The notes under the pieces: model-generated
What the model was told of the DNA's origin: nothing
Database searches by the model: none
The model's input: the letters and a program-made list of their open reading frames with translations, nothing else
In this document: positions 504-25,728 of the stretch, one piece after another
Layout of the letters: each line of letters opens with the position of its first letter
Numbering within the stretch: position 1 is the stretch's first letter
Source of the DNA: a virus
Lineage: Duplodnaviria; Caudoviricetes
Virus record (IMG/VR): IMGVR_UViG_3300047282_000591
Span: 1 to 31,765 of that record
DNA length: 31,765 bases
Strand: one strand, 5' to 3'
Translations under genes and position numbers: made by a program

Positions 504-2745
504 TCAAGCGTTAAAGGAGTAAGCGATGGTGGCGAAATCAGCATTCAGGAGTTCGAAACCTGCGTACAGGCTCCAAATCATCATGATGAAACGGCTGAAG
601 TCGTCGTTGTTGTTCAGGAGCACCTGAGCGTTGTTGCCGCCGATACCGACGCCCACGCTCTGGGGACCAAAGAACATACCAATCGCGGTTTCGTAGGACT
701 TCGAAGTACCTGCGATGGTGGCGGTTGCGTTCTGAGAAGGCATGTTGGTCGACTCGAAGAATCGAACGCCTTCAAACACGAAACCGGTGGGCATGATCGG
801 CTCACCAGCCACGAAGGTGGCTTGACCGAAGCCCTGACCCATGTAGATAGCAGCGTTAGGCTGCATCGCCGACATGAGCGGGTTGATCTGCCCGTTGCCA
901 GGGTAACGAGCAACTTCACGGAAGTCGCTGTTCTGACGCAGGTGCATCAGGAAGGTAGGATCGCAAACGCAGCGATAGAAACCGTCCTGGTAGGTGGGGA
1001 CGTTACGCTTACGCAGGCTCTTCACCACGCGCAGCAGGTCGTCCTTAACGTCGAACTTAGCTTGCTCGGCGTTGGCATAGGTGAGGCTACCAACAGCGAG
1101 ATCGCCGGGGTAGTAGTAACCACCTTGGCTGTCGGAAGCCTGGCCCTTGGAAACAGCTTTCAGGAGTTCGTTGATGAACACCCGGTCGCGCCAACGACGA
1201 TAGTCGTCAAGCAGAGTCAGCGAACCGATGGACTGGTGGAAGGCAGTCAGGTTGCCGGTATCCAACAGAAGACGCTGCGCGGTGATCAGAGTCTCGCGAG
1301 CAATCTTGAAAGTGCTGGGCTGAGTGGGATCAGTCGGGTCGGCAGGACCGGTGTACTCGCGAAGGGTCACGAGCACTTTGTCCTTCACGATATTGCGGCT
1401 GTTAGCAGTACCAATGGTCTGCTCTGCAGTACGCTCACGTGACTCCTTGGAGCCTGGGTTGCCCCAGAAGCGATAACGATCAAGCTGAACGGTCTGGCCG
1501 GGCTGTTTTGAGAAGTCGTGAACAACACGTGTTAGGATTCTGGAGTCCGAATCCGTTCCCTAGGTTTCTCATCCCTAGGGCACTGACTATATCTTGCTCC
1601 CAGATGTCACGTTACGAACGTTTTGACCCAGATTTTTCTGTTGTTCGCGAACTGGCTTCAAAAATGCCAGATGTTGAAGCAGCGAAAATACTAGGTGTAA
1701 CGATGGTGACTTTTTATAAAGCTAGAAAGAGACTCGGTATTCCATCTTACTTTGAACAAACCGGTAAGCGTAAGAGAAAATCAGGAGAGATTTACTCTTT
1801 TATGGAATACAATGACCGATATTTTGAGGTCATTGATACACCCGATAAAGCTTACTTTCTAGGTTTGTTAGCAGCAGATGGAAACATAAGTCCTAGATTA
1901 ACAGCAGCGAGGATAGCTCTAAAAGAACAAGATTGTAACATTTTAGAGCAATTTAGAAAGTTCTTAGGTGAGGGTGCTCCAGAACTTAAAACAAAGATCC
2001 CTAAAACTAATGGAAAGGAACATGCCCCTCAAAAAATTTTAGTTCTTAGTAAAAAGTCCATGGTGGAGGATTTATTGAAGCTAGGCGTAACACCTAACAA
2101 GTCCCACACTTTGAAACTTTCTTGTGACCTCCGTGAGTTTAAAAAGGACTTTATAAGAGGAGTGTGGGACGGAGACGGTTCTATTACAGAACGTCGCTTT
2201 AAAGTCACCACGGCTTCTCTTGAGTTTGCTTACCAGCTTCAGACTTGGATCCTCGATGTGAGTGGTTTGAGTCTTCCGATTAAATCAGAGCTAACCAAAA
2301 ACGGGAAAGATTTGTATTCTATTCCCGGTTACATCAGGGACGCAAAAGCCATACAGGCTATTTACGGAGGATGTAGTCTGGGTATTGAGCGAAAGCTTAA
2401 AGCTTACGAACAATACTGGGAGCCCCGGCGCTAATGGACTTCATAATCCGGTCTGGATCGTATGTCCTAGTCGATGAACCTTCCACTCATTCCTGAGAGG
2501 CTTGGCTGCTGATTGCCCCAGACTTCAGACTTTTTAACCGTTCACGCTTGCCGTCGCCGGCTACGTTGTAGGGTCTGAAGCTTTTAAGAAGGGTTTCCAG
2601 CAATTCACCGGGTTTTCACTCTCCGATTACTCAGAGAGGCGGCTGGGTTGTCAACCGGCTCTGCAGCCATCTCTACAACGTACGCAGGGTGCGGACGGTA
2701 GAGTTCTGCGCCGAGCAGCTTCGGAAAATCATTGTCGACGAACAA
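504..2745 (-). CDS. Major capsid protein, intron-split: join(complement 2654..2745, 504..1527), 371 aa
   Basis: Exon 1 starts at TTG 2745 with SD GGAGG (2754-2758) and reads MFVDNDFPKLLGAELYRPHPAYVVEMAAEP+GT. Exon 2 continues T GTT GTT CAC... giving (V)VVHDFSKQPGQTVQLDRYRFWG..., in frame with track ORF 504..1388. 92+1024 nt = 372 codons including stop. Size and position downstream of portal/scaffold fit an MCP. Confidence 0.85.
1528..2653 (-). mobile_element. Group I self-splicing intron (IA-like, with P7.1 extension) in the MCP gene
   Basis: Minus-strand core elements: P AAUUGCUGGAAAC, Q AAUCAGCAGCC, R UUCAUCGACUA, S AAGAUAUAGUC. P1 is CGGU^UG/CAGCCG with the U.G pair at the splice site. 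P10 is GACAAC with 3' exon GUUGUU. P2 has a GUAA loop, P3 is CCCGG/CCGGG, P8 is GCUCCCAG/CUGGGAGC and P9 is CCCUAGG/CCUAGGG. The terminal G is at 1528. Confidence 0.93.
1604..2434 (+). CDS. Two-motif LAGLIDADG homing endonuclease with N-terminal HTH, antisense within intron loop L8 (276 aa)
   Basis: Motifs AYFLGLLAADGNI and DFIRGVWDGDGSI, plus an HTH-like DVEAAKILGVTMVTFYKARKRLGI. ATG 1604 abuts the P8 stem. The track start at 1439 runs into exon 2 and is unlikely. Confidence 0.9.
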   Translation: MSRYERFDPDFSVVRELASKMPDVEAAKILGVTMVTFYKARKRLGIPSYFEQTGKRKRKSGEIYSFMEYNDRYFEVIDTPDKAYFLGLLAADGNISPRLTAARIALKEQDCNILEQFRKFLGEGAPELKTKIPKTNGKEHAPQKILVLSKKSMVEDLLKLGVTPNKSHTLKLSCDLREFKKDFIRGVWDGDGSITERRFKVTTASLEFAYQLQTWILDVSGLSLPIKSELTKNGKDLYSIPGYIRDAKAIQAIYGGCSLGIERKLKAYEQYWEPRR

Positions 2746-2825
2746 AGCGTCAACCTCCGAAGAACTACGTACTTAATTTAACTGAGTACCAATAAAAAAG
2801 GAAGGTTTGTGTCGCATTCTTAGCG

Positions 2826-3581
2826 TTAAACCTGCGGCTGATTACCGACGTTAACTGACGTGCTAAAGGGTCGGATAAGACCACGCACGCTCTCAGGGCT
2901 CTGGTAGTAAACAGAACCGTAATTGGATACATACCGTGTAGAACCGCCCCGATAGATAAATCGGAGGGGCGTGGACATCAATCCCGGAGCTTGAGAACGA
3001 ACAGTCTCAGTGTAAGTTTTGCAATATACCGGGGGGTTATATCGCCATTCAGCCCTATTAGCTGTGCCCTGACTCCCAAGATCATTCGTTAATATCGCAC
3101 CCTCATAGTTACGGTGGGTAACGCCGCCGCCGGTATATCCCTCCGCAGCCGAATTGCTATCAGGAGTATTGAACGGCGTGTAAACCTGACCGTCAGGGGC
3201 GCCTCCACCGTAATAAAGGTATTTACCCGCGTTACGAACCCCGTAATCCGGTGTAGTCGCAGTTTGAGTTTTTACACCAGCAACGGTTGTGGAGCTAATC
3301 GAACGATATCCAACGTAAGTATCTAGAGCTCCACTGGGCTCGTAGGCTACATCGTGCGTGTAATCAGTCCAATAACCGGAAACAGCTCTTGGTACAGACC
3401 TCCAATCGTCTGTCTGATACCACAATCCGCTGTTAGGTGCTCCCGGAGTAATTACACCGAGATCTGCTCCGAGATCATTAATACCAGAAGCGACAACAAC
3501 AAAGCCCTCATAATTCGGACCACTTTGAATCCGATGAGGGCCTGAGTCGTACTTGTAATTAGAAAGTGGGGTATAAGTCAC
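2826..3581 (-). CDS. Hypothetical protein, probably virion-associated (Tyr/Gly/Thr-rich)
   Basis: 251-aa ORF directly upstream of the MCP gene on the same strand; no motif recognised. Confidence 0.65.
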   Translation of the reverse strand: MTYTPLSNYKYDSGPHRIQSGPNYEGFVVVASGINDLGADLGVITPGAPNSGLWYQTDDWRSVPRAVSGYWTDYTHDVAYEPSGALDTYVGYRSISSTTVAGVKTQTATTPDYGVRNAGKYLYYGGGAPDGQVYTPFNTPDSNSAAEGYTGGGVTHRNYEGAILTNDLGSQGTANRAEWRYNPPVYCKTYTETVRSQAPGLMSTPLRFIYRGGSTRYVSNYGSVYYQSPESVRGLIRPFSTSVNVGNQPQV

Positions 3582-3612
3582 GGCGAATATGCGCTTATAC
3601 CCAGTCTAAGTT

Positions 3613-3789
3613 TTAACTTTCTGTATTAGCTGCAGGAGTAAGCTGAGAATTCAGGTGACTCATATCAGCACTGATATTGGCCATATCGGTGCGATAGAGA
3701 GACTTAAGTTCTTCAAGTTCTTTTTTTAAGGTCTCAACTTCAGCTGAAGTAGAAACTTGAACTTGACGACGACCCAGAGAGTTAGGCAT
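3613..3789 (-). CDS. Small coiled-coil hypothetical protein (58 aa)
   Basis: Not in the track. MPNSLGRRQVQVSTSAEVETLKKELEELKSLYRTDMANISADMSHLNSQLTPAANTES; the start overlaps the upstream stop and it fills the intergenic gap. Confidence 0.65.
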   Translation of the reverse strand: MPNSLGRRQVQVSTSAEVETLKKELEELKSLYRTDMANISADMSHLNSQLTPAANTES

Positions 3790-3964
3790 TGGAGCTCTTA
3801 CGCTTACTCTCAGTGTACTTCTTAGCTTTACGCTTCGCCTTTACCCGCTCGGGGAGGTTGCCCTTAGTTTCTTTTTCATACTCAGCGACTTTTGCTTTCG
3901 AGATCTCGCCCCGAGCTTCCATCGCATAAAATTTGCGGCGCTGTGCCTCCGATTTAAAAGGCAT
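3782..3964 (-). CDS. Small basic phage protein (MPFKSxxQRR type)
   Basis: 60 aa, Lys/Arg-rich, N-terminus MPFKSEAQRRKFYA of a type common in phage head regions. Confidence 0.7.
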   Translation of the reverse strand: MPFKSEAQRRKFYAMEARGEISKAKVAEYEKETKGNLPERVKAKRKAKKYTESKRKSSNA

Positions 3965-3996
3965 AGTTTTAAATGTCTCTAATTGAGTTTACCAAT

Positions 3997-4024
3997 AAAA
4001 AACCCCCGTCTGTAAAGACGAGGG
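3997..4024 (-). terminator. Rho-independent terminator after the scaffold-like gene
   Basis: Minus strand CCCTCGTC-TTTACA-GACGGGGG followed by a TTTTTT tract. Confidence 0.75.
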
Positions 4025-4060
4025 CGTGTCCCTTATCCACCGGAGCGGACAAACTATAGA

Positions 4061-4978
4061 TCAGTTGCCGTCCAGGAACAAGAGTTTGGAGCGGAATGCC
4101 TCAGGACTCATTTGAGACAGAACACGCCAAGCTTGCTCAGGGTTCTGGTTCATCACGTTGCTGAAACCTTCCCATTGGATTTGGGGATCACCAGTGGGAG
4201 TGCCGGTGCCAGCCGAAGCGGGAACGGCGGGCATCTGATCGTAACGGGGTTGATAAGCATTCTCCTGAACAGGAGCTGCTTCGTCCACGGGGTACACCTC
4301 GGTGAAGAACCGGTTGGTGTAATCAGCAAGCTGATCGGGATCAGTCAGAATCTGCTCCATGGCCATGGCGCGGTTAGCCACGTTCTCCAGCACGGTGTGC
4401 TGTTGAATCAGAGCATCCTCAAGAGTAACGGAGTACTGATTGAGGATTCCAGGAGCCTCGATGCCGAAGTGATTAACGACGGCGGCGGTTTCTTGGCTTA
4501 GCTGCGGAGCTTGTTGCTCCGTAGAAGTCGGATAAGAAGTCTGGGTTGTATACCCGTTGTTGGACGAGATCAGCGGAGCCTGGGGTGCCTGGTAAGCCCA
4601 AGGCTGTTGGGCCTGTGAAGGCAGACTGCTGAGTTGAGTATCCTGCAGCGCCACCGGGCTCTGCTGATACGACGCTGTCTGGCTGGGGGACGGAGAGATA
4701 CGGGAGACCACCCGCTCCAAGCTGCTCATCGCCGCTTCCCACGGGTTGGACGGGGAGGACGTTGACGGAGACTGGCTGTACTGGCTGTTGGTAGAAGGGA
4801 CCGAAGCCTGTGTTGCCGGCGACTGCACTTGGGGCATAGCTGCCGAAGGTGCCGCCTGGGTAGTTGCTACCCACTGCGGGTAGGCTGTTGAGCCCATATC
4901 CGCCGAGGGCGCCGCCTGCGGGGCTGCTACCGCCGGGGATACCGGGCTCGGGATCGAAGCTGGGATCTGCTGGCTCAT
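4061..4978 (-). CDS. Putative capsid scaffolding protein
   Basis: 305 aa with a Q/P/S/A low-complexity N-half and an acidic helical C-half (FGIEAPGILNQY...QLADYTNRFF...FRSKLLFLD). Lies between portal and MCP; the first 506 nt overlap the portal ORF in another frame. Confidence 0.6.
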   Translation of the reverse strand: MSQQIPASIPSPVSPAVAAPQAAPSADMGSTAYPQWVATTQAAPSAAMPQVQSPATQASVPSTNSQYSQSPSTSSPSNPWEAAMSSLERVVSRISPSPSQTASYQQSPVALQDTQLSSLPSQAQQPWAYQAPQAPLISSNNGYTTQTSYPTSTEQQAPQLSQETAAVVNHFGIEAPGILNQYSVTLEDALIQQHTVLENVANRAMAMEQILTDPDQLADYTNRFFTEVYPVDEAAPVQENAYQPRYDQMPAVPASAGTGTPTGDPQIQWEGFSNVMNQNPEQAWRVLSQMSPEAFRSKLLFLDGN

Positions 4979-6710
4979 AGCTGCCCGAGTAAGTCAGTTC
5001 TTGCGCAAGGTGGTCAAACGTCCTATAGAGCAAGGGCGTTATGTTTAGCCGAGGGTCAGCCGCAAGCGGTTGATTCGGCGCAAGTGGATGTGGCGCTTGC
5101 AACATCTGATTCAATAATAGTAGAAATTGCTGGAAAGCGCCCTGGGTTTGTTGAATCATTCTGAAGGGAAAGCCCTTCAGCATTTCGGCACGTTCTGAAT
5201 CGGTTTTATCCGGGAACAGATACTTCAGAGCCTCTACGGAATCAACACCCAACTCTTGAAGATTTCGAACGACGATAGATTTTTGGTTGATGTCGTACGC
5301 AGTATCTTCGTAAACATCGCCTTGAAAGCGATATGTAACGTTACGATCTCCGTCAGGCGGAAGGCCGTAAACGCCACGTGGGACTTTGTTTTCAGTTACA
5401 GCGGTTTGAATAGCTAAGTCAACATCAGACTCGTACTTAGTGAGTCTCTTTTGGTACTTAGCAACAGATTCTTCAGTTTGCTCTTTAGGTTCTTTAGGGG
5501 GTGTAAGCCCCATAACTTGGATGAAACTTTCGCGGAAAATAATCTCCTGGTGATAAATAATCATCTCCAAGAGGCGGCAGAAACCGTAAGTTAAGAAACT
5601 TTTGTTTTTCCGCAGGGCCGTTGCTTGAGCACGACCCATTAAGCCTTTAATTTCAGTTGCGGTAGCACCAGCTGAGACAGAAATCTCGTCAACGCCACCT
5701 AAAGCTGTACGTATTTCCTCTCTTAAGAGAAGTGCGTATCGATTCATATCCCCGTTAACGGGGTCGGGCGTCATGTAGCCCACACGATCTGTAGGCTCGA
5801 CGTTGGCGATAACGCGAGGAACTCGAAGTCCGCCCAGAGCAGAGCTCGCTCCAAATGGATCGGATACACGAGTTGACGGTGTATCTAATCCGGCAAATCC
5901 GCTCTGACTACTGATGGTGGGTCGGAAGTTCCGGTCAGCGTCCGATGCTTCCACCAGATCGCTACGGGGACGCGAACTAATCAGCGTGGGATTGCCAAAA
6001 AACTCAATATTCTTGGCAATATTCGTCATCATCTGATCATGAAGCACAATCTGCTCCATGAACGCCTCAAATTCGCCTTCTCCCTCAGTACCGCTGGAAT
6101 TAGGTTTGTTTAAAACCTCAACAGCGGGAATAAATCCGAGCGTATTGGGTTTACGGCTTTTAGGTGTTAAAACCGTGCCAGGGTCTAACTCAAAACTAAG
6201 CTCTGTATTCGCTTCAAACTCTGAAATGGTTTCAGCAGTTATCGAGAGTCTGACGTACCGCTTATTTTGCCCATAAGTATCGGCAGGCAGACCTAAGGAC
6301 GAATTACGTACCTTATAACTGTAAATAATTACGACTTCCTCAATATTCCCATTTATATCGTGATAAACACGATATTGATTTTTAGAGAAGAAGTAGATTT
6401 GATACTTTAGTTTTGGATCAGGGCGGAAATAGAACAATCCACAGCCGTCGATCAAAAAATTCCGGATAATCGACGGAAAACGGATGTCGATCTTATTTAA
6501 ATCGAGTAAATCCGTTAAAAATTTGGTCCGGGCTTTATAGGTGTCTTGTTCGCAGTAAAAAAACAGGCCCTTTTTCATCATCAACAGCGTCATTTGCTGC
6601 AGATGACTCAAAACGACCATGGTGGCCGACTGCTTAGAACGATCCTGGGTGCGTGAAGCCTCCAGGATCTCGTTAAAACGTTGACGAACGCTGAGATTAT
6701 CAGCCGGCAT
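4473..6710 (-). CDS. Putative portal protein
   Basis: 745 aa downstream of TerL. Portal-like features include FLIDGCGLFYF, NTLGFIPAVEV, GEGEFE, a helical stem and SAGATATEIK; the C-tail is low complexity. Confidence 0.75.
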   Translation of the reverse strand: MPADNLSVRQRFNEILEASRTQDRSKQSATMVVLSHLQQMTLLMMKKGLFFYCEQDTYKARTKFLTDLLDLNKIDIRFPSIIRNFLIDGCGLFYFRPDPKLKYQIYFFSKNQYRVYHDINGNIEEVVIIYSYKVRNSSLGLPADTYGQNKRYVRLSITAETISEFEANTELSFELDPGTVLTPKSRKPNTLGFIPAVEVLNKPNSSGTEGEGEFEAFMEQIVLHDQMMTNIAKNIEFFGNPTLISSRPRSDLVEASDADRNFRPTISSQSGFAGLDTPSTRVSDPFGASSALGGLRVPRVIANVEPTDRVGYMTPDPVNGDMNRYALLLREEIRTALGGVDEISVSAGATATEIKGLMGRAQATALRKNKSFLTYGFCRLLEMIIYHQEIIFRESFIQVMGLTPPKEPKEQTEESVAKYQKRLTKYESDVDLAIQTAVTENKVPRGVYGLPPDGDRNVTYRFQGDVYEDTAYDINQKSIVVRNLQELGVDSVEALKYLFPDKTDSERAEMLKGFPFRMIQQTQGAFQQFLLLLNQMLQAPHPLAPNQPLAADPRLNITPLLYRTFDHLAQELTYSGSYEPADPSFDPEPGIPGGSSPAGGALGGYGLNSLPAVGSNYPGGTFGSYAPSAVAGNTGFGPFYQQPVQPVSVNVLPVQPVGSGDEQLGAGGLPYLSVPQPDSVVSAEPGGAAGYSTQQSAFTGPTALGLPGTPGSADLVQQRVYNPDFLSDFYGATSSAAKPRNRRRR

Positions 6711-10232: not shown

Positions 10233-11753
10233 TCAGTACTCAATCGAGAAGTTCCCACGCTTCTGTAAAAACGTGATCAACCAAACGTAAGCGTCCAAGA
10301 GGTCGTCGTGCGCAGTCGCACCAACGTTAATCAGCTGGTCGAAGAGTGCGTCGAACTTACGATATTTGTTAAAAGTCACTTTTTTGTTTTCCAACAGACC
10401 TAGAGTTCCCCGGAATCGTGCGATCTTATCCCCTCTAAATCCTTTAATTTCATGAATATGTAAGTTGCTCAGTTCTCTTTCATTAATGAGAACCCGCCGC
10501 AAGTCAGCGGCTAACGAAGCTTGGTACGCTACAGACTCAACGACGAGAGTAACCGTAGAGTATGTTGGGTAGAATACATCATCTTGCTTGGTGAGGATAC
10601 CCCACTCCAAGAGCATGTCACAAAGCAAATCTATTTTCTCTAAGTTGCCGATACTCCGGCACTGATGCGCATCGATGATGTAGTACTTATCCCCTAGACG
10701 GCCGCCAAGAACAAATGCTGTGTAGTCACTCGTTTCGTTTTTACTGGCGGACAAGTCGATGCCCACAGCAAGTGAATCGAACTCTGTAACAACTTCACTT
10801 TTAACTAACAGATCCGGTGAAACAACCAGATCAGAGGTCATCACAGGTTGTTGTTGGTACTGGAAGGCAAAAGCAACAGGATCTAACTCTTTTTGTCCCA
10901 ATAGGTATTCGGTGGACCATTGCTCAGGCCAATAACTGACCGGGTCCCCCATGTTGTTATACGTAATAGCTTCTTGTGTAACCTGCTTCCACCCTTTAGA
11001 GGGCACAAACATAGTCTTATGAATATCTAACGGGTGGAATCGAGTACCCAGACAAATAGAACGACCACCTTCGAAAATAATCGGCGCAATAACTGAAGAC
11101 CAGTTGTTATTCATCTCGTCCCGGATTGCCGGGTTTTTAATATCTGCGCTGGATTTAATAGGGTCATCAACGATAACGAGGTGAGCACGTTTCGAAGTAA
11201 TCGAGCCTCGGAGACCCGCCGCCCTCAACGTAAATTCTTCATCGCCCACGCGGGGGATGCCTGCAAAATCAAAGTCGATAGACCAACCAATATCTGACTG
11301 CATACCCGCTTTTAACTGAACACGCGGGAAAACCTTGCGGTACTCCGAAGAATCAATAATTTGACGAATAATCCGACTCTTTGGGATTGCGGTGGCGATG
11401 TTATAAGACACATAGATGATCTGCAGAGGAAGCTTTGCAGTTGTGTGCCTACCTATAATCCACGCGGTAAATAGGTTTAATACCGTGGATTTAGCCGAAC
11501 CCCGTGGGGCAAGAATATCCAGATTTGGCCCAGCGATATCCAGCAGGTACTTATTCGACTCTCCAGTGATCAAATGTTGGTGCCACTCCAGCATGTGCTT
11601 TGCTGGGGGTTTATCTAGAATAGTACAGAACGTATGAAAATCATCACGCGCCTTAGAGTAAATACTTCCTACGTTTGTTGATGTATCCTCTTGTGCCCGA
11701 AGTGCCCGCATTTGAGCACCGCGCCGATAGGCAAAGGTTTCCCGACTGGGCAT
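10233..11753 (-). CDS. terL: Terminase large subunit
   Basis: Walker A APRGSAKST, Walker B IVDDPIKS, motif III GTRFH, and nuclease acidic residues GIDLS, SDYTA and HDDLLDA. Confidence 0.95.
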   Translation of the reverse strand: MPSRETFAYRRGAQMRALRAQEDTSTNVGSIYSKARDDFHTFCTILDKPPAKHMLEWHQHLITGESNKYLLDIAGPNLDILAPRGSAKSTVLNLFTAWIIGRHTTAKLPLQIIYVSYNIATAIPKSRIIRQIIDSSEYRKVFPRVQLKAGMQSDIGWSIDFDFAGIPRVGDEEFTLRAAGLRGSITSKRAHLVIVDDPIKSSADIKNPAIRDEMNNNWSSVIAPIIFEGGRSICLGTRFHPLDIHKTMFVPSKGWKQVTQEAITYNNMGDPVSYWPEQWSTEYLLGQKELDPVAFAFQYQQQPVMTSDLVVSPDLLVKSEVVTEFDSLAVGIDLSASKNETSDYTAFVLGGRLGDKYYIIDAHQCRSIGNLEKIDLLCDMLLEWGILTKQDDVFYPTYSTVTLVVESVAYQASLAADLRRVLINERELSNLHIHEIKGFRGDKIARFRGTLGLLENKKVTFNKYRKFDALFDQLINVGATAHDDLLDAYVWLITFLQKRGNFSIEY

Positions 11754-11806: not shown

Positions 11807-12979
11807 ATGGCCAGGATTCTTTGGCACGGTGATGCTTGTAGTAATACAGGATTTGGTCGAGTAACACATAGTGTACTAGAGCATCTGAGTAAAGACCATG
11901 AAGTACACGTATTAGGCATCAATTACAGCGGCGACCCACACGATTATCCGTACAAGATTTACCCAGCGGCAAACGTCAACTGCCCGGATCGATTCGGGCT
12001 GCCGCGTATCCCTGAGATTATCGACAAGGTAAGACCAGACATTTATATATGCCTAAACGATATTTGGGTCGCCAATCAGGTTTGGGAACAAGCTCAGTTC
12101 CTTCAAGAAAAATACAAGTTTAAATTTATCGTTTACTTCCCGGTAGATAGTCAGTCTTATTTGCCGGATATGTTACGCAATATCCCTCACTGGGATATGG
12201 CCATCACATTTACCATTAATAGCGCTCAACGCATCATCCAGCAGAAAGTTCCAGCCAAGCGACTAGGTGTTCTGCCACATGGCGTGGATACAGGCCGGTT
12301 CAAACCCATGCCCAGGGATGAAGCCCGAGATCAATTAGGACTCCCTAAAGATAAATTCATCGTATTAAACGCCAACAGAAACCAACCCCGCAAGCGCATT
12401 GATCTAACGATTAAAGCTTTTGCCAAATTCGCGGTTGATAAACCCGACACCATGTTGTATTTGCACATGAGTGCAAAAGATCTGGGTTGGGATGTTATTC
12501 CGCTGTTTAAGAAGGAGATGTCAGCGCAGGGTCTCGATGACCACAAGCGCTTGGTCATGACATCGCATAATATTAACTATATTGCTGCTCCGTCTGACGA
12601 AGTACTTAACCGTATCTATAACGCCTGTGACGTAGGTATTAACACAGCAGACGGTGAAGGTTGGGGATTGGTTAGTTTCGAACATGCGAGCTGCCGAAAA
12701 CCGCAGATTGTCCCCAACCACACCGTCTGCGCGGACATTTGGGAGGAAGCTGGGATGCTTTCCGACATTTCCTCGTGGGTGACCGATAAAGACCTCGGCG
12801 TGGAAAGAGGGTTGGTCAATATCGACCACATGGTGTCTCTGCTAAACGAGTTGTATTACGACCAAAACACTTATAAAGAAGTCGCCGACTCGTGCTACGC
12901 GGTGACACAACGAAAAGAGTACCGCTGGGAACACATCGCTCTAGGTTTCTCCAAAGCTGTCGAAGACCTTCTGGCTTGA
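11807..12979 (+). CDS. Glycosyltransferase family 4 (GT-B fold)
   Basis: TGFGRV, PHGVD, NRNQPRKRID and the EX7E motif EGWGLVSFE. Confidence 0.92.
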   Translation: MARILWHGDACSNTGFGRVTHSVLEHLSKDHEVHVLGINYSGDPHDYPYKIYPAANVNCPDRFGLPRIPEIIDKVRPDIYICLNDIWVANQVWEQAQFLQEKYKFKFIVYFPVDSQSYLPDMLRNIPHWDMAITFTINSAQRIIQQKVPAKRLGVLPHGVDTGRFKPMPRDEARDQLGLPKDKFIVLNANRNQPRKRIDLTIKAFAKFAVDKPDTMLYLHMSAKDLGWDVIPLFKKEMSAQGLDDHKRLVMTSHNINYIAAPSDEVLNRIYNACDVGINTADGEGWGLVSFEHASCRKPQIVPNHTVCADIWEEAGMLSDISSWVTDKDLGVERGLVNIDHMVSLLNELYYDQNTYKEVADSCYAVTQRKEYRWEHIALGFSKAVEDLLA

Positions 12980-12981
12980 TC

Positions 12982-14061
12982 ATGCAAACAACTCACCGTT
13001 TTTATCACGCTTACAGTGATTGCCTGTTTCCTATTAAACAGGAGGAAGAAGGAGTTCCCAGTGTTTACCGTCAAGCCGAAAATCTCGGCGGAACCTTCAC
13101 TCGAATTACCAAAGGGTTGCCGGATAACGCTGTAGCTAACTTCAGCCCCAGCATTATCCAACACAAGGATAAAATCTTCATCGCGTGGAGATCGCAACCG
13201 GAGCCCTTTGGCTTTAGATACGATCGCAACTACTTTTACTTAAATAACGGGAACACCGATATTTACATCGGCCAGCTGGCTGATGACGAAACGATTCTTG
13301 GAACAAAGAAGTTAAGGTCTAAACCGCATCGACTGAGTTATGAAGATCCACGCCTGTTCGTGGGTCCGGACGACGAACTATATGTGCAGTTTGTCGCTTC
13401 CACATACGCGAGTCGGTATAACCGAGGCGGTAAAAATCTATTCGATAACCCCAAAGTTATCGTTTGCTACGTGGATGAAAACGGCGAGGCTGTTAGCGCC
13501 GCAATCCCACCAATCGGAGAAAACAGAAATAAGGAGAAGCCAGAGAAAAACTGGTGCTTCTTCCCGTACAAGGACCAGCTGAGTTGTCTTTACTCCACGG
13601 TTCCTCTTGTTATTGAGAGCGAATCACTGCCTCGAATTGAGACTGACTCGGAGCCTCTTAAACAGGTCAGTAAAGGGTGTCCAACCTTTAACTCCACTGC
13701 CCCTATTGATCTGGGTTACGGCCATCTGGTGTTTTATCACTGGAAGCACATGACCCGCAGTGACTCAGGTCAGAACTATTTGATTTATCACCTAGGTAGC
13801 TACATCGCGAGTAAGGATTTCAAGGAGATCCTCTATGTCGATGAAAACCCGCTGTTTACGGGGTCTTTAAACGACAAGTTAATCCAGTGGACGGATTACG
13901 CAGGTAATCCTCTGTCGACACAACCAGCGGTAATCCTTCCTTTCGGTGCCTACGTCGAAGGAACCGATCTGGTTATGTCGTTGGGTGTAAATGATGCTTT
14001 TATGGGGATCTTCAGGACCCCCTTGGAAAACATCATGCGGCGATTTAAAAGAGTCAGTTAG
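12982..14061 (+). CDS. Beta-propeller glycoside hydrolase/phosphorylase-like protein (GH130/GH43 clan-like)
   Basis: FSPSII, YEDPRLF, EKNWCFF and a terminal GVND. Likely start is ATG 12982, just after the GT4 stop. Confidence 0.7.
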   Translation: MQTTHRFYHAYSDCLFPIKQEEEGVPSVYRQAENLGGTFTRITKGLPDNAVANFSPSIIQHKDKIFIAWRSQPEPFGFRYDRNYFYLNNGNTDIYIGQLADDETILGTKKLRSKPHRLSYEDPRLFVGPDDELYVQFVASTYASRYNRGGKNLFDNPKVIVCYVDENGEAVSAAIPPIGENRNKEKPEKNWCFFPYKDQLSCLYSTVPLVIESESLPRIETDSEPLKQVSKGCPTFNSTAPIDLGYGHLVFYHWKHMTRSDSGQNYLIYHLGSYIASKDFKEILYVDENPLFTGSLNDKLIQWTDYAGNPLSTQPAVILPFGAYVEGTDLVMSLGVNDAFMGIFRTPLENIMRRFKRVS

Positions 14062-14588
14062 CTCTTTTCTTCTCGCTCCAGAGTCGACCACACCAGGATT
14101 GAGGCGTCGTCCAATAAAGCCTGGATGGTCGGCTGTCCATCCAATGTCTGCATAAGTTCCCGCAAACAACGGTCGGCGCCGGCAAGTAATAAACCGCGTC
14201 GATCCAAACCGTCAGTAATAGCCCGAACAGATTGGATGTGGGAACGGAGTTCTTTCTGAAGAGCGGAGATCTTAGTAGCTGCTGTGGCATGATCTAACAT
14301 CCCCGTCAACGTCATATCTCGAACATTCTTAATGTCTGTTTGCAAACTGTCAATCTCTATTAATAAGATTTTACGTAAATCTTCTTTAGGGTACTTCTCC
14401 TGCACCCAAGCGGTTAGATCGCTAATACTACCTTGATATCCTGGGGTTAAAAACCTAGCGTACAAATAAGCTTCAATATCACTAGCCGAATTTTTCGCAT
14501 AGTGAACAAAAGCGTCTTTCTGGGATTTATCCAGAGACGCAAGCCACTCCGCGACTGTGTCGGAGCAGCCAATTGTCGATTTAATCAT
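14058..14588 (-). CDS. Hypothetical helical protein
   Basis: 176-aa ORF with ATGA overlap to the upstream gene; a TerS role is possible but unsupported. Confidence 0.6.
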   Translation of the reverse strand: MIKSTIGCSDTVAEWLASLDKSQKDAFVHYAKNSASDIEAYLYARFLTPGYQGSISDLTAWVQEKYPKEDLRKILLIEIDSLQTDIKNVRDMTLTGMLDHATAATKISALQKELRSHIQSVRAITDGLDRRGLLLAGADRCLRELMQTLDGQPTIQALLDDASILVWSTLEREEKS

Positions 14589-15283
14589 GCGAAGGACCGC
14601 TGTCCCGCTAAGGCTAAACCAGCCCCGAAACGTTTCAACGCAAGCTGACCCTCGACTTGTCCACGCTGTAAAGCAAGTTTATTGCGGGTATCCTCCTGCA
14701 TTTTCGAGATATCTAAATTGGTTTTAGAGATATCCGAAGCCAGTTGGTTACGGGCTAAGTTAGCTTGCAGACCTGCAGTGGCTTGAGCCTGAGCAGTCGG
14801 ATTCAGCAGCGTGGTTTCACCAACTAAACCAGTCTTCTGTAAATCGCTGACACCCTGAGCGTACAGTTTGGTTAGATTTGCTGCAGTCTCAGGTCCTAGC
14901 AACTCAGTAGAAGTCCGAGCTTTGGCAGCAAGATCCTGATTCCCGATTACGCTGCTCGCATACTGAGAAGCAATACCGGCTTGTAGGCCGGACTGCATTT
15001 GCTCCTTAGAAATAGCTTGAGAAAACTGGTCATATGCCTGTTGACCTAAGACGTTCGTCTGAAAATTAAGAGCCCGGATGTACGGAGCCATCATCTGGGC
15101 TAATTCTTGCCCAGCAATGGAAATTCGAGTCTGACCGGGAGCTAGTTCAGACGCGTAGAGCGCACTGTAATCTGCAGCGGGAGCTCCGCCGCCACGAAAA
15201 GCTCCGACAACACTACCGATACCGCCTAAAGCTGTGCCGGCACCGCCAAGTACTGCCCCAATCCCAGCTAAAGGTATAGCCAT
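14585..15283 (-). CDS. Putative internal virion/ejection protein
   Basis: Gly/Ala-rich hydrophobic N-terminus (MAIPLAGIGAVLGGAGTALGGIG) followed by Q/A-rich helices. Confidence 0.5.
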   Translation of the reverse strand: MAIPLAGIGAVLGGAGTALGGIGSVVGAFRGGGAPAADYSALYASELAPGQTRISIAGQELAQMMAPYIRALNFQTNVLGQQAYDQFSQAISKEQMQSGLQAGIASQYASSVIGNQDLAAKARTSTELLGPETAANLTKLYAQGVSDLQKTGLVGETTLLNPTAQAQATAGLQANLARNQLASDISKTNLDISKMQEDTRNKLALQRGQVEGQLALKRFGAGLALAGQRSFA

Positions 15284-15288
15284 ATCAA

Positions 15289-16047
15289 TTAACCTCCTTT
15301 AAGACTGGGAAGGGGAGAGTAAGCACCTTTAAAGGCTTCATTTAAAGCCTGCATTGTGCCTACATTCGGCTGTTGTGCCAGAAAAGCCACGCTGGCTAGA
15401 GCGCCCATTTGCTGAGCTTGGGTTTGCAGGCGTGCTTGCTCTAAATCACGCCAAGCCCGAATATTTTCGGTTTCAAGCTGACGGCGAGTGAGCTGTTCCC
15501 GACCCTGTTGAGCAATCGCAGCATTTAAGATGCTGGTCTTCATCAACTGCTCGGTCTTGAAGCGCTCCAATTCAGGGAAACGCTTTAAGATCTCTTCAAG
15601 CTTATCCTCAGCGGATTTAACAACAGGTTCAGTACCCTCTTTGGGTCCTTTTGTTTCCGGCAATTCAGGTTTAACTGGAGCCTCACCTGTTTCTAACTCT
15701 CCGGAAGAACCTGAATCGATAGGAGAACCAGCCGCACTACTAGGAATAGCAGCACTTAATTCGTCCGCAGAGACGCCGGGGGGAGTACCGTAGCGCTCAT
15801 AATATGGTTTCAATTCACGCCATTGTTTTGTGGCGTCATCCCAGTAAACTTTTTTGTCGTTTAAAACAGCTTCTTGTCCACGCTTGCGTTGTTGAGCCAA
15901 ACGTAAAGCTTTGGCCTGAGGCGTCTCTTGCGTGCCTCCGGTAACGCCGCCGAATAATTTTGCAGCAAGACCGATAGGAGCTGTGGCGGGATTAGATAAC
16001 AGGATATCCCCGAAATTAACAGGAGACTGTAAAAAACCGTCAGACAT
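15289..16047 (-). CDS. Hypothetical, possibly internal virion protein
   Basis: 252 aa, helical and Q-rich C-terminus. Confidence 0.55.
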   Translation of the reverse strand: MSDGFLQSPVNFGDILLSNPATAPIGLAAKLFGGVTGGTQETPQAKALRLAQQRKRGQEAVLNDKKVYWDDATKQWRELKPYYERYGTPPGVSADELSAAIPSSAAGSPIDSGSSGELETGEAPVKPELPETKGPKEGTEPVVKSAEDKLEEILKRFPELERFKTEQLMKTSILNAAIAQQGREQLTRRQLETENIRAWRDLEQARLQTQAQQMGALASVAFLAQQPNVGTMQALNEAFKGAYSPLPSLKGG

Positions 16048-16061
16048 AACTTACGAGCTCC

Positions 16062-16772
16062 TCACTGTACTTTAGCAATTTCTTGAAGTACAGGACTGTT
16101 TTCTAACTTGGCTCGCTCGTAAACGTTGTTGATGGCCGATTGCAGAATGTTCTTGGCGTAATCGTAACCAGACTGAACACGCTGACTCTGGACTTCGCCC
16201 AGCGATTTAACCTGCTGAGAACGAATCTGAGCCTCAGACTGAAGTGCTTGGTTAATAACGTCATACTCACGCTGAGCACGAATCTTGGCGATCTCACGCT
16301 CGGTGAGACTCTCAGCCATTTCAATGTTGCGCTGCTGAGCCTGCTCTAACAAAGTACGCTGCGAGGCCAAATCAGGAACATCAATCCCTAAGGACTGCAG
16401 CATCCTGCGGCGGAATACTTCAGGAGAAGATTTCAGCTCATACTCCATACCCAGCGAAGGGGAGATGAAGTACTTGCTGCTAATACCAGCATCAATCGAA
16501 CCAGCAGGTGCTGTAGCGCTTTCGATTGCGCCACCAGCAGCCATCTTGGAGATATCGCCAGCCCACGAAGCGAGTCCGCCCATAGCGTTATCCGCAGGCT
16601 GACCGGCAAGGGCCCTCATTGTCTGAGGATTACTTAAAAGCTGTATTGCCTGATCTTGGCTAAAACCCGCCCCAACAAGTTTCTGAGCAAGATTAATGAT
16701 TAAATCTGCAGCTACGGCGCCACCCGTGGCCTTAGCCGCACCGCCCACTAAACCAGCAAAGGGATTAGCCAT
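16062..16772 (-). CDS. Hypothetical, possibly internal virion protein
   Basis: 236 aa, Gly/Ala-rich N-terminus and coiled-coil C-terminus; SD GAG upstream. Confidence 0.55.
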   Translation of the reverse strand: MANPFAGLVGGAAKATGGAVAADLIINLAQKLVGAGFSQDQAIQLLSNPQTMRALAGQPADNAMGGLASWAGDISKMAAGGAIESATAPAGSIDAGISSKYFISPSLGMEYELKSSPEVFRRRMLQSLGIDVPDLASQRTLLEQAQQRNIEMAESLTEREIAKIRAQREYDVINQALQSEAQIRSQQVKSLGEVQSQRVQSGYDYAKNILQSAINNVYERAKLENSPVLQEIAKVQ

Positions 16773-16773
16773 A

Positions 16774-17007
16774 TCAACTCACTTGAGGGCGGTCGAATTG
16801 AGTACCAGAAGGTATCTTCTTCTGTAAGTTTACATCTTTAACTTCCATTTGCGGGACTACGCCACGCTCACGCTGTTCCCCAGAAGGTAAAGCAGCTGTC
16901 TGAGGAAAATTAGATTGAACGTACATGTCCAAAAAGGACACAGGATCAAGAGCCGGAGCAGTTTTACGAACGTCTTGATCAAACAGTTGCTGACGCCGAT
17001 CCATCAA
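16774..17007 (-). CDS. Hypothetical protein
   Basis: 77-aa ORF coupled to its neighbours. Confidence 0.55.
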   Translation of the reverse strand: MMDRRQQLFDQDVRKTAPALDPVSFLDMYVQSNFPQTAALPSGEQRERGVVPQMEVKDVNLQKKIPSGTQFDRPQVS

Positions 17008-17510
17008 CCCAGCTCTTGATAACGAACAGAAGCGGGAATAGTGCTAGAAGTGGGAGCATTCAACACGGAATACTGACCGCCATAGTTCGGCATGTCGTAC
17101 TCAAGAGGACGCTGCTGGCTCAGGTACTCACCGCCGGCAAGTGCGTCATCATCGATGTTCTGAATGAAATCAGCGAACATCTGAGCAAGCGTGGGATCAC
17201 TCATGATGATCTCCAGCAGACGATACAGCTCAGCCTGATCGTCGGGAGAAACAACGCCAGCCTCTAAACGACGACCCAACTGAACGCGTGCCTCGGGTTG
17301 GCGAACGTCGGGATACGTATTTAAGGAGCGCGTAGCGCCCATGTTCATACCGGCCGGATCCTCATGCCCAGGCATGGGGGGAGCGGCACGATGAAAATTC
17401 CGAAGAATCTGAGCAACCATGGGTGCTGCCACAGCTCGCTCAGCCGGAGTTTGGGGAACCGGAAGTCCGACTACGCGAGCTGCGAACTCATAATCTTGCG
17501 GACTAAACAC
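17004..17510 (-). CDS. Hypothetical protein
   Basis: 168-aa ORF overlapping both neighbours by a few nt. Confidence 0.6.
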   Translation of the reverse strand: MFSPQDYEFAARVVGLPVPQTPAERAVAAPMVAQILRNFHRAAPPMPGHEDPAGMNMGATRSLNTYPDVRQPEARVQLGRRLEAGVVSPDDQAELYRLLEIIMSDPTLAQMFADFIQNIDDDALAGGEYLSQQRPLEYDMPNYGGQYSVLNAPTSSTIPASVRYQELG

Positions 17511-17772
17511 CAGAACACACCACTACTGATGAGTCCATCTTAGACGAAATCTTCAAAATATCGCCAGGCTCAACGTCTAATACCAAGCAGATGCGTTCTA
17601 GAACATCAGGTGACGGTATGTAAGTCTCATCATAATATATCTTACGTGTTGTAGTAGGAGATAGACTGCTCATCTTACTCAGTCGAAACGAGGAGATTCC
17701 GTACGAATCGATGACTGATTTAAGAGTATTAATTAGTTTCCCGCAGCGAGTATGAGAGGAATAAAAGGGCAT
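17503..17772 (-). CDS. XRE/Cro-C1 family HTH transcriptional regulator
   Basis: LKSVIDSYGISSFRLSKMSSLSPTTTRKI...PSPDVLERICLVLDVEPGDIL. Confidence 0.85.
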   Translation of the reverse strand: MPFYSSHTRCGKLINTLKSVIDSYGISSFRLSKMSSLSPTTTRKIYYDETYIPSPDVLERICLVLDVEPGDILKISSKMDSSVVVCSGV

Positions 17773-17804
17773 CCCACTATTAATATGCTGATGTATAAGT
17801 TTAA

Positions 17805-18131
17805 TTAAAACTCGTCAATTTTGTAACTAGGGTCCAACTGCAGGGAATCGATAAGAGCATTACAGGCTTTGATGTTTGTTCTGTACCACTCGGATTGATC
17901 CACATCCATAAGTTCGCCCAGTAACTTCACGTTACATAAAAGAGGGCGATTCGAATAGACCGAGCATTTGTTATCAACCAGCTTCTCGCAAACCCCATTT
18001 AGATCGGGCTTAAAAGGAAACCGCTCGATAGCGTCCCCTAAAACGGGGTGACAATCATCCGGATTAAGGCTTAGAACGTTACCAATGACGCGACAACATG
18101 CGCTACACCCAGTACAGGGAAAGTCGTCCAT
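17805..18131 (-). CDS. YkgJ/CxxCxxCC cysteine-cluster protein
   Basis: FPCTGCSACCR...CEKL...CSVYSNRPLLC. Confidence 0.85.
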   Translation of the reverse strand: MDDFPCTGCSACCRVIGNVLSLNPDDCHPVLGDAIERFPFKPDLNGVCEKLVDNKCSVYSNRPLLCNVKLLGELMDVDQSEWYRTNIKACNALIDSLQLDPSYKIDEF

Positions 18132-18901
18132 CAGAACCCCAGGTTCTTACGCCGGACAAAGTCCAAGTCATATGTAGTGAAATCTAGAGGCAACGACGAG
18201 TTATTAAAGGGGTAAGGATAAACATCACCTTCAATATGGTTCTGCCACGCTGGACTCCATTTCGCATGAAGGTAATGCTTGTTCATCTCGTGGGCAATAT
18301 GAATCCGCTGAGCTAACTCAGGTTCACTGCGCCAGGTCTGCGAACCATCCGTATAGTTACCGGACACCTCACCGTGGTAATAAGGAACGCCGACCGACAT
18401 CTCGCGTTTAAGCTCTTTATGCTTAAACCGCATACCGTAATCCATATCCTCACAGTACGCAGGATATAAATTCTCATCAAACAAACCGTACTGCTGTACC
18501 ACCCAGTCCTTCAGAAGGAACACATCCCAGCCGCCGTCCTGCCCATGGACCACGCCTGTTTCCGCATCTTGCGCGTGCGTAACCATGCGCTCCAGGAACC
18601 CAGGCGTATACATTACGTCGTGGTTCGTTATGATCCAATACGGGGCGTTCATGTAGGACTTGATAATTAGGTTCCAAGCCCCGGAACACCCGATGTTGGA
18701 AGGCATGTGGCAAACCACAACGCGCTTCACGTACTTGTGCGGTAACTCTTTCAGCAGATCGAGTTCCCTCGTAATCTGATCCCGCCCGTTGTTATTGAAA
18801 ACAACAAAGGTATCTACGGGATAATCGATGCTATAGAAAAGGCGATAAACCCAATGCGGTGCATTAACAACCGCCGTACCAATAACCGGAATCGAATCCA
18901 C
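18131..18901 (-). CDS. GT2-like glycosyltransferase
   Basis: VVFNNN, NIGCSGAWN, IITNHDV and GLFDENLYPAYCEDMDY. Confidence 0.85.
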   Translation of the reverse strand: MDSIPVIGTAVVNAPHWVYRLFYSIDYPVDTFVVFNNNGRDQITRELDLLKELPHKYVKRVVVCHMPSNIGCSGAWNLIIKSYMNAPYWIITNHDVMYTPGFLERMVTHAQDAETGVVHGQDGGWDVFLLKDWVVQQYGLFDENLYPAYCEDMDYGMRFKHKELKREMSVGVPYYHGEVSGNYTDGSQTWRSEPELAQRIHIAHEMNKHYLHAKWSPAWQNHIEGDVYPYPFNNSSLPLDFTTYDLDFVRRKNLGF

Positions 18902-18909
18902 AGCAAACC

Positions 18910-19425
18910 TCAGCGAGACAGAACCAGAAGACCGTTGTTATTCCGACAATCCGAGTGAACCGTCCACTCAGGATTGGCTTCCCGGAACTCGTTAATCGCG
19001 GGCATCAGTTGTCCTTCGCACGAGACAGTGTCGTGGAAAGCCAAGAACTTACGGGCTTTATTGCCGTGCAGGCTCAGTTCTTTCGACAGGCAATCGTACG
19101 TGTGATCCGTGTCGATAAAGATGAAGTCCACCTCGGGCAGCTCGATATCGAAAGAGCTGGCCTGAATCAAACCGCAGTGGATACCCTCGGCAACGCCAGC
19201 ATCGAAAATGGCGAGCGCTTCAGGCAGCAACACAATATCGTAACTAACCAAAGACGCGGGTCGGGCCGCGATCAAAGCGGTGCTACTAACAGCAGTTCGA
19301 ACGCCAAGTTCAACCACGCTGTCGCATTGTTTCGCCAGATCGAACAACAGTTGCAGATGCTCGTTAATATCTGAAGGAGTGGCCTTGGCCAACTCAAAGT
19401 TGCGGTCTACTGTGGACAAAATCAC
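18910..19425 (-). CDS. Class I SAM-dependent methyltransferase (Methyltransf_24-like)
   Basis: VVELGVRTAVS, DFIFIDTDHTY and AFHDT. Confidence 0.85.
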   Translation of the reverse strand: MILSTVDRNFELAKATPSDINEHLQLLFDLAKQCDSVVELGVRTAVSSTALIAARPASLVSYDIVLLPEALAIFDAGVAEGIHCGLIQASSFDIELPEVDFIFIDTDHTYDCLSKELSLHGNKARKFLAFHDTVSCEGQLMPAINEFREANPEWTVHSDCRNNNGLLVLSR

Positions 19426-19520
19426 AACTAAGATCTAGCAATATATTAACACTATTCGGAGTTAAAAACCGACTTGCGTCTGGAGCACGGAGAACGCCGT
19501 TTTTACTCCACGCTTATCCC

Positions 19521-19688
19521 CTAGTTAAGATCACCCCGCTCTCGGAGCCACGCGGTTCGTAGTTGATTCGCTTTGGGCTCGACCAGATGATACGAGCTCA
19601 CCACTCCGCTCTGGTCCCCAACCTTGACCTGAACACACCCGTCATCCAACGATATGGTCTCAGTCTCAGGGAACTCAATATTGTCCAT
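19521..19688 (-). CDS. Small cyanophage-type hypothetical protein (55 aa)
   Basis: Not in the track. MDNIEFPETETISLDDGCVQVKVGDQSGVVSSYHLVEPKANQLRTAWLRERGDLN, with TAAACT upstream. Confidence 0.6.
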   Translation of the reverse strand: MDNIEFPETETISLDDGCVQVKVGDQSGVVSSYHLVEPKANQLRTAWLRERGDLN

Positions 19689-19716
19689 TTGCGTGGCGGC
19701 CCGATATCTCCGTAGT

Positions 19717-20763: not shown

Positions 20764-21187
20764 TCAAAACCAATTCAACTGAAGATTCTTTAAACATTTG
20801 CTTTGATGTCTCAAAGCTCAATGCCCATCGGTCAGGGATCGGCGCGTTGATTGAAACCACGCGTTTGATCCCCGCCTGGATCAGCAGTGTACAGCAAGAA
20901 CTACAGGGAAGAAACGGCCAGACATAGACCGTGGAATCCTGCAGAGAGATTCCGTTTCTAGCTGCCTGAGCGACAATGTTCGCTTCAGCGTGGACTGTGC
21001 GCAGCAGCTTCTCGTTTCGATTGTTGAGCCGACCGGGCAGGTCCGCAATGGCTTTGGGAAACCCGTTGTAACCAGTGGCTAGAACTCGCCGGTCTCGCAC
21101 GCACACGGCTCCAACTTGCGTAGATGGATCTTTACTCCACTGCGCAATGTGCTTGGCTAAATCTAAAAAGCGGTTGTCCCAGCTCAT
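20735..21187 (-). CDS. dCMP deaminase family protein
   Basis: SKDPSTQVGA, TGYNG, HAE and PCSSC zinc ligands. Confidence 0.92.
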   Translation of the reverse strand: MSWDNRFLDLAKHIAQWSKDPSTQVGAVCVRDRRVLATGYNGFPKAIADLPGRLNNRNEKLLRTVHAEANIVAQAARNGISLQDSTVYVWPFLPCSSCCTLLIQAGIKRVVSINAPIPDRWALSFETSKQMFKESSVELVLIDVEDEDRD

Positions 21188-25638: not shown

Positions 25639-25722
25639 TACCTCGGGCGGGACTTGAACCCGCAAGGTCACGAGACCGACGCATTTTAAGTGCGTTCTGT
25701 TTACCAGTTTCAGCACCGAGGC
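25639..25722 (-). tRNA. tRNA-Leu(TAA)
   Basis: Acceptor GCCTCGG/CCGAGGT, anticodon arm ACGCA-CTTAAAA-TGCGT, long variable arm and T-arm GCGGG-TTCAAGT-CCCGC; no encoded CCA. Confidence 0.93.
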
Positions 25723-25728
25723 ATTAGG

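Follow-up and report, generated by a model that had tools for sequence, protein, structure and literature searches.

An antisense gene for a predicted LAGLIDADG endonuclease in loop L8 of a splicing group I intron that interrupts the major capsid gene of a phage

Nucleases of the GIY-YIG and HNH families prevail in phage introns (PMC3984707), as was also said in an earlier note on the DNA considered here, and a survey of Bastillevirinae records 1 LAGLIDADG enzyme (PMC11878797). The closest described system is that of mycobacteriophage LittleE, in which a probable group I intron of the major capsid gene is spliced in vivo, the endonuclease open reading frame (ORF), related to LAGLIDADG enzymes, lies on the bottom strand, and gene-less relatives exist (PMC3706429). 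A comparable layout is found in a viral stretch of 31,765 nucleotides (nt), IMG/VR record IMGVR_UViG_3300047282_000591 (Duplodnaviria; Caudoviricetes), called the window below and comprising the full assembly. Its major capsid gene contains a group I intron with an intact antisense LAGLIDADG gene in loop L8, whose product is likely a homing endonuclease that is active and is translated from a counter-transcript of the gene's own (probability about 0.75). Since the antisense layout has been published for LittleE, the element is not of a new kind; new are the RNA circles, the covariation of helices whose strands flank the gene, five versions of the intron without the gene, of which two show deletion scars, and a candidate promoter in antisense.

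The major capsid gene is interrupted by a group I intron (Table 1). Rfam Intron_gpI matches the minus strand with 46 bits (E 3.6e-10), below the 50-bit gathering score, and a scan at the gathering threshold missed the intron. Among the best 80 capsid loci of 595 confirmed matches (the total being estimated at about 770 stretches), the intron is absent at this point in 68; these read ...MAAEPVVVHDF... across the site, which fixes the splice junction. The remaining loci comprise five with this intron, six with another intron 15 nt downstream and one without exon 1. Intron removal restores the frame and gives a capsid protein of 371 amino acids (aa), collinear with the 68 uninterrupted alleles. 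The splice-site U2654 pairs with guide G2643, all 4 pairs of P1 are formed in 26/26 haplotypes, and omega-G is G1528.

Covariation was followed in 27 distinct intron haplotypes, including that of the window; they were drawn from all loci and are not independent of each other. P3, P4 and P7 are paired in all 27. Compensatory changes are numerous in P2, P5a, P5c, P6a, P7.1 and P9, and occur also in P3, in the top pair of P7 and in P8. The partners of this top P7 pair (2474/1584) flank the 830-nt gene and are U-A in 14 haplotypes and A-U in 13; the second pair of P8, a helix of 8 bp directly beyond which the endonuclease ATG is located, is C-G in 18, U-A in 8 and A-U in 1. P10 has 5–6 pairs in most distant lineages and 2–3 pairs in register in the clade of the window. 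Subgroup IA2, to which phage introns usually belong, is defined by P7.1 and P7.2 joined by GUA (PMC3428280). In this intron P7.1, situated between P7 and P3', is paired with covariation in 27/27 haplotypes, which assigns it to subgroup IA; it forms a single long hairpin without P7.2, and P5 is extended, so it is not a typical IA2 intron. It may be nearer to IA1.

The intron splices and circularises in vivo in close relatives of the window. The evidence comes from 8 of 20 public RNA-type runs that share a small part of the window; their contigs are unstranded and show neither level nor strand, and the uneven RNA cover of the intron and exon 2 is left unused. A circle lacking only the first U is present in three of the eight runs (lake, estuary). 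In run X6 the joint 2652 -> 1528 is covered at depth 7.8, with 140 letters on the short side. The same joint in run X13 (depth 4, 255 letters) comes from an estuary sampled in 2018 and from a strain without base 1603, i.e., from a different strain, year and habitat. Run X2 contains a 1155-nt contig whose first 30 letters equal its last 30, which gives a closed loop of 1125 nt. Read as RNA, the joint links omega-G to the second base of the intron. In 448 DNA loci, not one of the 19 circle junctions specific to a haplotype is present. The excised intron starts with exoG-U and exon 1 likewise ends in G-U, so the internal guide can align the circle site; circularisation by omega-G with the release of a short 5' piece is known for Azoarcus (PMC13168695). 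In run X8 an exon-exon contig (depth 23.9) and an intron contig (depth 24) share one exon-1 haplotype, and in 14/14 DNA loci with this haplotype the intron comes next. The exon-exon contig is likely spliced mRNA, an intron-less allele being the alternative; the best stored haplotype matches 16/26 of the X8 intron variants, and none matches fully.

The earlier note described the gene as exactly filling L8. The loop (1604–2415) is indeed filled and the ATG abuts P8; the ORF overruns the loop by 19 nt into P8 and P3'. The further claim that the tail serves two purposes is borne out by the coordinates: codons Y-W-E-P-R-R-stop (2414–2434) are the antisense of the P8 5' strand, P3' (2430–2424) and J7.1/3. 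Nearly all of 40 aligned proteins end in WEPRR. Synonymous divergence, about 0.35 over the gene, falls to 0.065 in the last 8 codons, as would be expected from dual coding with P8 and P3'. The three frames of the capsid strand across the ORF contain 15, 11 and 21 stops.

The product is very likely a functional homing endonuclease, as predicted from its sequence and modelled structure. It matches Pfam LAGLIDADG_3 (PF14528, E 7e-12, above the cut-off) and the endonuclease family PHROG 4645 (E 3e-38). Both LAGLIDADG motifs named in the earlier note are present; the helix-turn-helix (HTH) named there corresponds to an HTH-like N-terminus which scores below the Pfam cut-offs for HTH families. The structure is predicted with a pLDDT (predicted local distance difference test) of 90.7, with motif helices at 80–92 and 177–191. 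In Foldseek, LAGLIDADG structures of inteins and introns are matched with probability 1.00 (best E 5.7e-10), among them intein endonucleases, I-Tsp061I, I-DmoI and I-SceI, and the model matches unnamed phage endonucleases along its full length; a sequence search of solved structures gave weak intein matches only. The bI3 maturase and WhiA are also among the top Foldseek matches, and a LAGLIDADG maturase is known in Thermotoga (PMC3984707). A protein that has lost DNA cleavage and has been retained as a maturase or a WhiA-like DNA-binding regulator, to which the HTH-like N-terminus would be suited, is nevertheless very unlikely: both catalytic aspartates are invariant in 40/40 proteins, gene-less introns persist with intact helices, and the intron is distributed patchily.

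The gene is under purifying selection. The database contains 46 homologs with 52–92% identity, most of full length, the next ones having at most 45%; the homologous gene family as a whole spans 52–95%. The ratio of nonsynonymous to synonymous divergence (dN/dS) against the window is 0.08–0.21 in 12 of 17 pairwise comparisons, the other five being saturated. The dN/dS check proposed in the earlier note thus speaks for an intact gene, and a decaying remnant, which the two frameshifted and five gene-less haplotypes could suggest, is largely refuted and can hardly be maintained. As to degenerate copies in relatives, which were named there as evidence that would refute it, the frame is open in 20 of 22 gene-bearing haplotypes and shifted in two.

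A longer ORF from a GTG start at 1439 was rejected, since in relatives the ATG follows the S element at a distance of 6 to 10 nt, a variation which shifts the upstream frame. Met21 is a possible alternative start: it is invariant in 40/40 proteins, but codons 2–20 are weakly constrained (ratio of nonsynonymous to synonymous polymorphism, pN/pS, 0.53); the relative in locus L257 has Leu at this position. In locus L183 the ATG is situated further upstream, in the antisense of P9, and the frame runs across the S element; this locus also lacks the P5 extension through a deletion.

Orientation was surveyed in 159 loci fetched with alignment, of which 29 (18 viral and 11 metagenomic, some from the same contig) contain a homolog with at least 50% identity. 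The gene is antisense in this intron in 29/29 of these, in agreement with the orientation given in the earlier note. Among the 130 more distant loci, one (L257) has the gene antisense in L8, and about six have it in sense between group I core motifs. The sense relatives (31–41% identity) are found in other phages (L207, L225, L234, L245, L291 and L300).

Two further antisense genes of this type were observed in capsid introns. In L257 (559–1386, plus strand) an intron near codon 200 carries a 275-aa antisense HTH-LAGLIDADG protein (32% identity) in L8. In L181 (499–1494, plus strand) an intron at codon 278 has an antisense HTH-LAGLIDADG gene (27% identity over a part) that fills L8 exactly, with the ATG against P8 and the stop within P8. 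Searches for more relatives of these two genes gave one distant match and the same contig again.

Gene-less or sense versions, for which a survey had been proposed in the earlier note, were found in both forms: five haplotypes lack the gene, and a sense LAGLIDADG intron is located 15 nt away. On the ribozyme tree the gene-less haplotypes occupy five separate positions, of which well-supported branches force at least four, and they retain all core helices; the endonuclease protein tree is mostly unresolved. Gene loss is secondary at least in L090 and L148, as judged from deletion scars: L090 has an in-frame scar joining the first and last six codons, and L148 fits a loss between the short direct repeats that flank the gene in its sister L099. 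In four of the five, the capsid gene has also another, ORF-bearing intron, which could carry the gene-less intron along. No new gene-less copy at this site was found in 7 of 64 parts scanned. Mobility is suggested by the intron being 96–98% identical between phages and by exon-2 synonymous divergence (dS) to the window (0.59–1.17) exceeding that of the gene (0.21–0.29) in L043, L083 and L084.

The second intron located 15 nt downstream (L068–L071, L073, L078 and L090/L133/L140) is also of group I and has 995 nt; its ORF, located between P7 and P3', is in sense and encodes a two-motif LAGLIDADG protein. In L090 this intron sits alongside the gene-less copy of the present intron and displaces the candidate -35. 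The overlap of the target sites of these neighbouring introns suggests competition or hitchhiking. The capsid gene is further interrupted in L094, L097, L147, L148, L183 and L096 at approximately codons 18, 48, 80–93, 140 and 290–304, in part by short insertions and in part by ones with sense ORFs; in relatives, sense-ORF introns are found near codons 18 and 88–93.

The inversion could be an adaptation of the phage. According to the earlier note, it uncouples a toxic nuclease from abundant late capsid transcription; the counter-transcript could also tune capsid splicing or translation. The conserved orientation in the close loci, the related antisense genes in L8 at two more capsid sites, and the lack of a plus-strand terminator in 1000–4100, due to which the RNA could reach the capsid ribosome-binding site (RBS), are in line with this proposal. 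In T4, moreover, translation of I-TevI through the ribozyme core harms td splicing (PMC2988022). By analogy, sparing the ribozyme from translation is a plausible side benefit of the antisense gene. The proposal as such is weakened by the sense-ORF introns at four or more sites of the same capsid gene: since sense LAGLIDADG genes are tolerated there, no protection from late transcription is needed. The intron is also missing from most alleles (68/80), the gene has been lost in five places, and a single ancestral inverted insertion that met a promoter suffices for the conserved orientation. An adaptive origin of the inversion is therefore improbable.

As the gene is antisense to both the intron and the capsid gene, it needs a counter-transcript, a claim of the earlier note which follows logically from the orientation. 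Transcription could start near 1545 from the extended -10 element TGTTAGGAT, which the conserved 3' end of the ribozyme forms in antisense and which is the sole TGnTAnnnT on the plus strand in 900–2700; translation could proceed from the ATG at 1604 without a Shine-Dalgarno site. Judged by sequence, the chances that this terminal element is a working promoter are close to even. Alternatively, the endonuclease may be active while its gene is transcribed by read-through or pervasive antisense transcription from elsewhere, the extended -10 being only a mirror of the ribozyme. This is somewhat unlikely for several reasons. The terminal extended -10 is present in 20/22 gene-bearing haplotypes vs 1/5 gene-less ones at this site (the exception being the near-identical L148), with T at -12, A at -11 and T at -7 held and the middle varying. 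In the gene-less L090 the sole private change in the last 76 nt, relative to four sister haplotypes, hits the -12 T. L183 has lost the terminal motif and has a different extended -10 that is about 20 nt closer to its shifted ATG and precedes this ATG by about 25 nt, and the genes neighbouring the endonuclease in the window are on the minus strand. The motif is found in 16/17 antisense-ORF cores, vs 2/5 gene-less cores (1 at the intron end), and the L181 antisense-gene intron likewise has it at its terminus.

Several observations weigh against an endonuclease expressed from its own promoter, and some of them favour read-through. Within the 100 nt scanned, the extended -10 is matched in 11 of 26 other group I cores without an antisense ORF, and in 8 of these the match is at the intron end; the element is partly a ribozyme feature, because it mirrors the UAACA-type 3' end common in these ribozymes. 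Three of the five gene-less introns retain the TAnnnT core, the TG is missing in L254, and no terminal extended -10 was seen at the L257 intron end. The -35 matches in the close clade of the window and is poor in most lineages, being weak in the distant ones. A sigma-70 scanner, which needs a spacer of 16–18 nt, gave no promoter in 1000–3000, nor in 2400–4100, and no Shine-Dalgarno site precedes the ATG at 1604. The free-standing T4 gene segD, antisense beside the capsid gene, is described without an identified promoter of its own in the available text of PMC2988022. Haplotypes L118 and L255 are frameshifted, and in L029 the dS of the gene (1.07) exceeds that of the exon (0.80), so the mobility signal is not uniform. 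The RNA runs consist of unstranded contigs of about 96% identical relatives without matched DNA runs, five of the eight lack the circle joint, and X2 and X6 may share one sampling campaign. The plus-strand RNA, its start site and the cleavage are predictions.

Two other candidates for promoters were rejected. The motif TTATTGGTA, common to two upstream regions of the window, is present in only 2/52 relatives. TATCTT, located in antisense within the S element and 8 nt ahead of the ATG, was considered as a leaderless -10 and is not conserved in the L096, L099 and L183 lineages.

The reading of an active endonuclease with its own counter-transcript could be realized as follows. The intron leaves the capsid pre-mRNA, and omega-G then attacks after the first U, closing the 1125-nt circle, as is seen from the structure and the RNA contigs. 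From the plus-strand transcript a monomeric enzyme, by analogy with its family, would be produced which could cut intron-less capsid alleles near codon 31 during co-infection, and repair could then copy the intron into the cut allele. The inverted orientation would be a frozen insertion accident that was viable through a latent promoter and because a ribosome would never cross the ribozyme on the pre-mRNA; tolerance of the nuclease would not require the inversion.

The capsid gene appears to be served by a different promoter design. The pattern G[CA][GA]ACA-N28-30-TAnnnT precedes 46/56 distinct capsid starts and is a candidate late, activator-dependent promoter; no promoter of the GCGACA type is present at the antisense site. 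The differing designs may reflect an early endonuclease and a late capsid. A broader reading is that the ribozyme 3' end doubles, in antisense, as an extended -10 of the host type, making L8 a landing pad for backwards nuclease genes. This is a rather doubtful proposition; if true, it would explain the antisense HTH-LAGLIDADG genes in L8 at three capsid sites. The host polymerase would then provide for early production of the nuclease, and an activator-type promoter for late production of the capsid, which would separate the complementary RNAs in time.

Table 1. Coordinates of the capsid gene, the intron and the antisense gene in the window
Feature	Position	Strand	Evidence and remarks
Major capsid protein, exon 1	2654-2745	-	TTG start; GGAGG at 2758-2754; ends in splice-site U2654; matches uninterrupted alleles
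Major capsid protein, exon 2	504-1527	-	PHROG 1357 major head protein, E 7e-23
Group I intron, 1126 nt, IA-like	1528-2653	-	Rfam RF00028, covariation, RNA circles; omega-G at 1528
Ribozyme, 5' part	2416-2653	-	Internal guide sequence 2643-2640; P2 2638-2619; P3 2612-2606/2430-2424; P4 2602-2598/2511-2507; P5 with extension 2593-2517; P6a 2497-2486; P7 5' strand 2474-2468; P7.1 2467-2436; P8 5' strand 2423-2416
Ribozyme, 3' part	1528-1603	-	P8 3' strand 1603-1596; S element and P7 3' strand 1589-1584; P9 1580-1558; P9.1 1554-1535 (aligns poorly, partly supported)
Antisense homing endonuclease gene (predicted), 276 aa	1604-2434	+	HTH-like N-terminus (about residues 11-53); two LAGLIDADG motifs
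LAGLIDADG motif 1 (FLGLLAADG, D92)	1856-1882	+	D92, G93 invariant in 40/40 aligned proteins
LAGLIDADG motif 2 (IRGVWDGDG, D191)	2153-2179	+	D189, D191, G192 invariant in 40/40 aligned proteins
Candidate extended -10 promoter (TGTTAGGAT)	1530-1538	+	Antisense of the last 11 nt of the intron; predicted start about 1544-1545
Candidate -35 (TTGAGA)	1508-1513	+	19-nt spacer; inside capsid exon 2; 5/6 match
Candidate capsid promoter	2775-2815	-	GCGACA motif (2815-2810), 29 nt, TAAATT (2780-2775)

The window likely belongs to an S-EIV1-like freshwater phage, a cyanophage, as judged from sequence. Capsid exon 2 has 67% identity to a region of Synechococcus phage S-EIV1, the sole named phage record matching, from which a freshwater picocyanobacterial host is presumed. 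The terminase (10233–11753), the portal (4473–6710) and the major head protein are encoded on the minus strand. Genes for a glycosyltransferase, a galactosyltransferase, a nucleotide-sugar epimerase and a dCMP deaminase are located by the terminase (11807–21187), and two tRNA genes (Rfam) are found at 25639–25801 on the minus strand, with the anticodons read by eye as Leu(UAA) and Met/Ile(CAU). The S-EIV1 stretches inspected (1–50 kb and 55–68 kb) list neither an RNA polymerase nor a sigma factor. In the S-EIV1 record (L088, KJ410740.1, approximately 60784–62010) the annotation of the capsid region gives a hypothetical protein on the minus strand and a short one on the plus strand, the true capsid frame apparently having been overlooked.

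How antisense homing genes are expressed is posed as a question for nuclear introns in PMC9548176; for phages, the layout otherwise rests on a passing remark on LittleE. The present family offers a natural experiment, since one abundant capsid gene occurs in alleles that bear the nuclease gene, lack it, lack the intron or contain a sense gene. Of 69 natural intron-less alleles, 6 agree exactly with the intron-bearing ones in five exon-1 bases and the first base of exon 2. The 9-nt candidate promoter lends itself to a reporter test. Stable-looking intron circles could flag active late infection in metatranscriptomes, and for annotation it should be considered that a 30-codon exon 1 is easily overlooked. 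A literature search, whose coverage left out most subscription papers, gave no publication on introns in S-EIV1-like capsid genes, and the available text of PMC8557907 contains nothing on this capsid intron element.

Comparison with known systems reveals both common and distinct features. The endonuclease gp14 of LittleE has 177 aa, is I-CreI-related and has an HNH-like C-terminus (HNH in the figure legend; PMC3706429), whereas the protein described here has 276 aa with two motifs and the HTH-like region, is encoded in L8, comes from a likely cyanophage and is accompanied by environmental RNA circles. The introns of T7-like phages with I-PfoP3I and I-TslI are likewise group IA phage introns, one of them from a cyanophage, but their HNH genes are located in P6a, have an RBS and are embedded in the host transcript (PMC3428280). 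The same source places the PhiI/W31 HNH genes in P6a with an RBS, within the DNA-polymerase transcript, which argues against the T7-like HNH gene that the earlier note cited as a precedent for an inverted nuclease gene.

The T4 genes for I-TevI/II/III resemble the present one in being intron genes with a promoter of their own and an ORF end overlapping ribozyme structure; they differ in being sense genes of GIY-YIG or HNH nucleases, and segD, which is antisense, is situated outside introns (PMC2988022). I-DmoI, I-Tsp061I and intein endonucleases (TliVMA) share the fold and have, like it, a catalytic aspartate where each of the two motif helices ends, whereas the protein encoded here has an N-terminal HTH-like extension and 13–26% identity to them. 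In the myxomycete ribosomal DNA introns Dsq.L2066 (with I-DsqI) and Dir.S956-2, the gene is likewise opposite to the ribozyme strand, is expressed from a separate transcript and is active at the insertion site (PMC9548176). That case differs in its eukaryotic nucleolar setting, Pol II promoter, insertion in P9, His-Cys nuclease and spliceosomal introns (PMC9548176).

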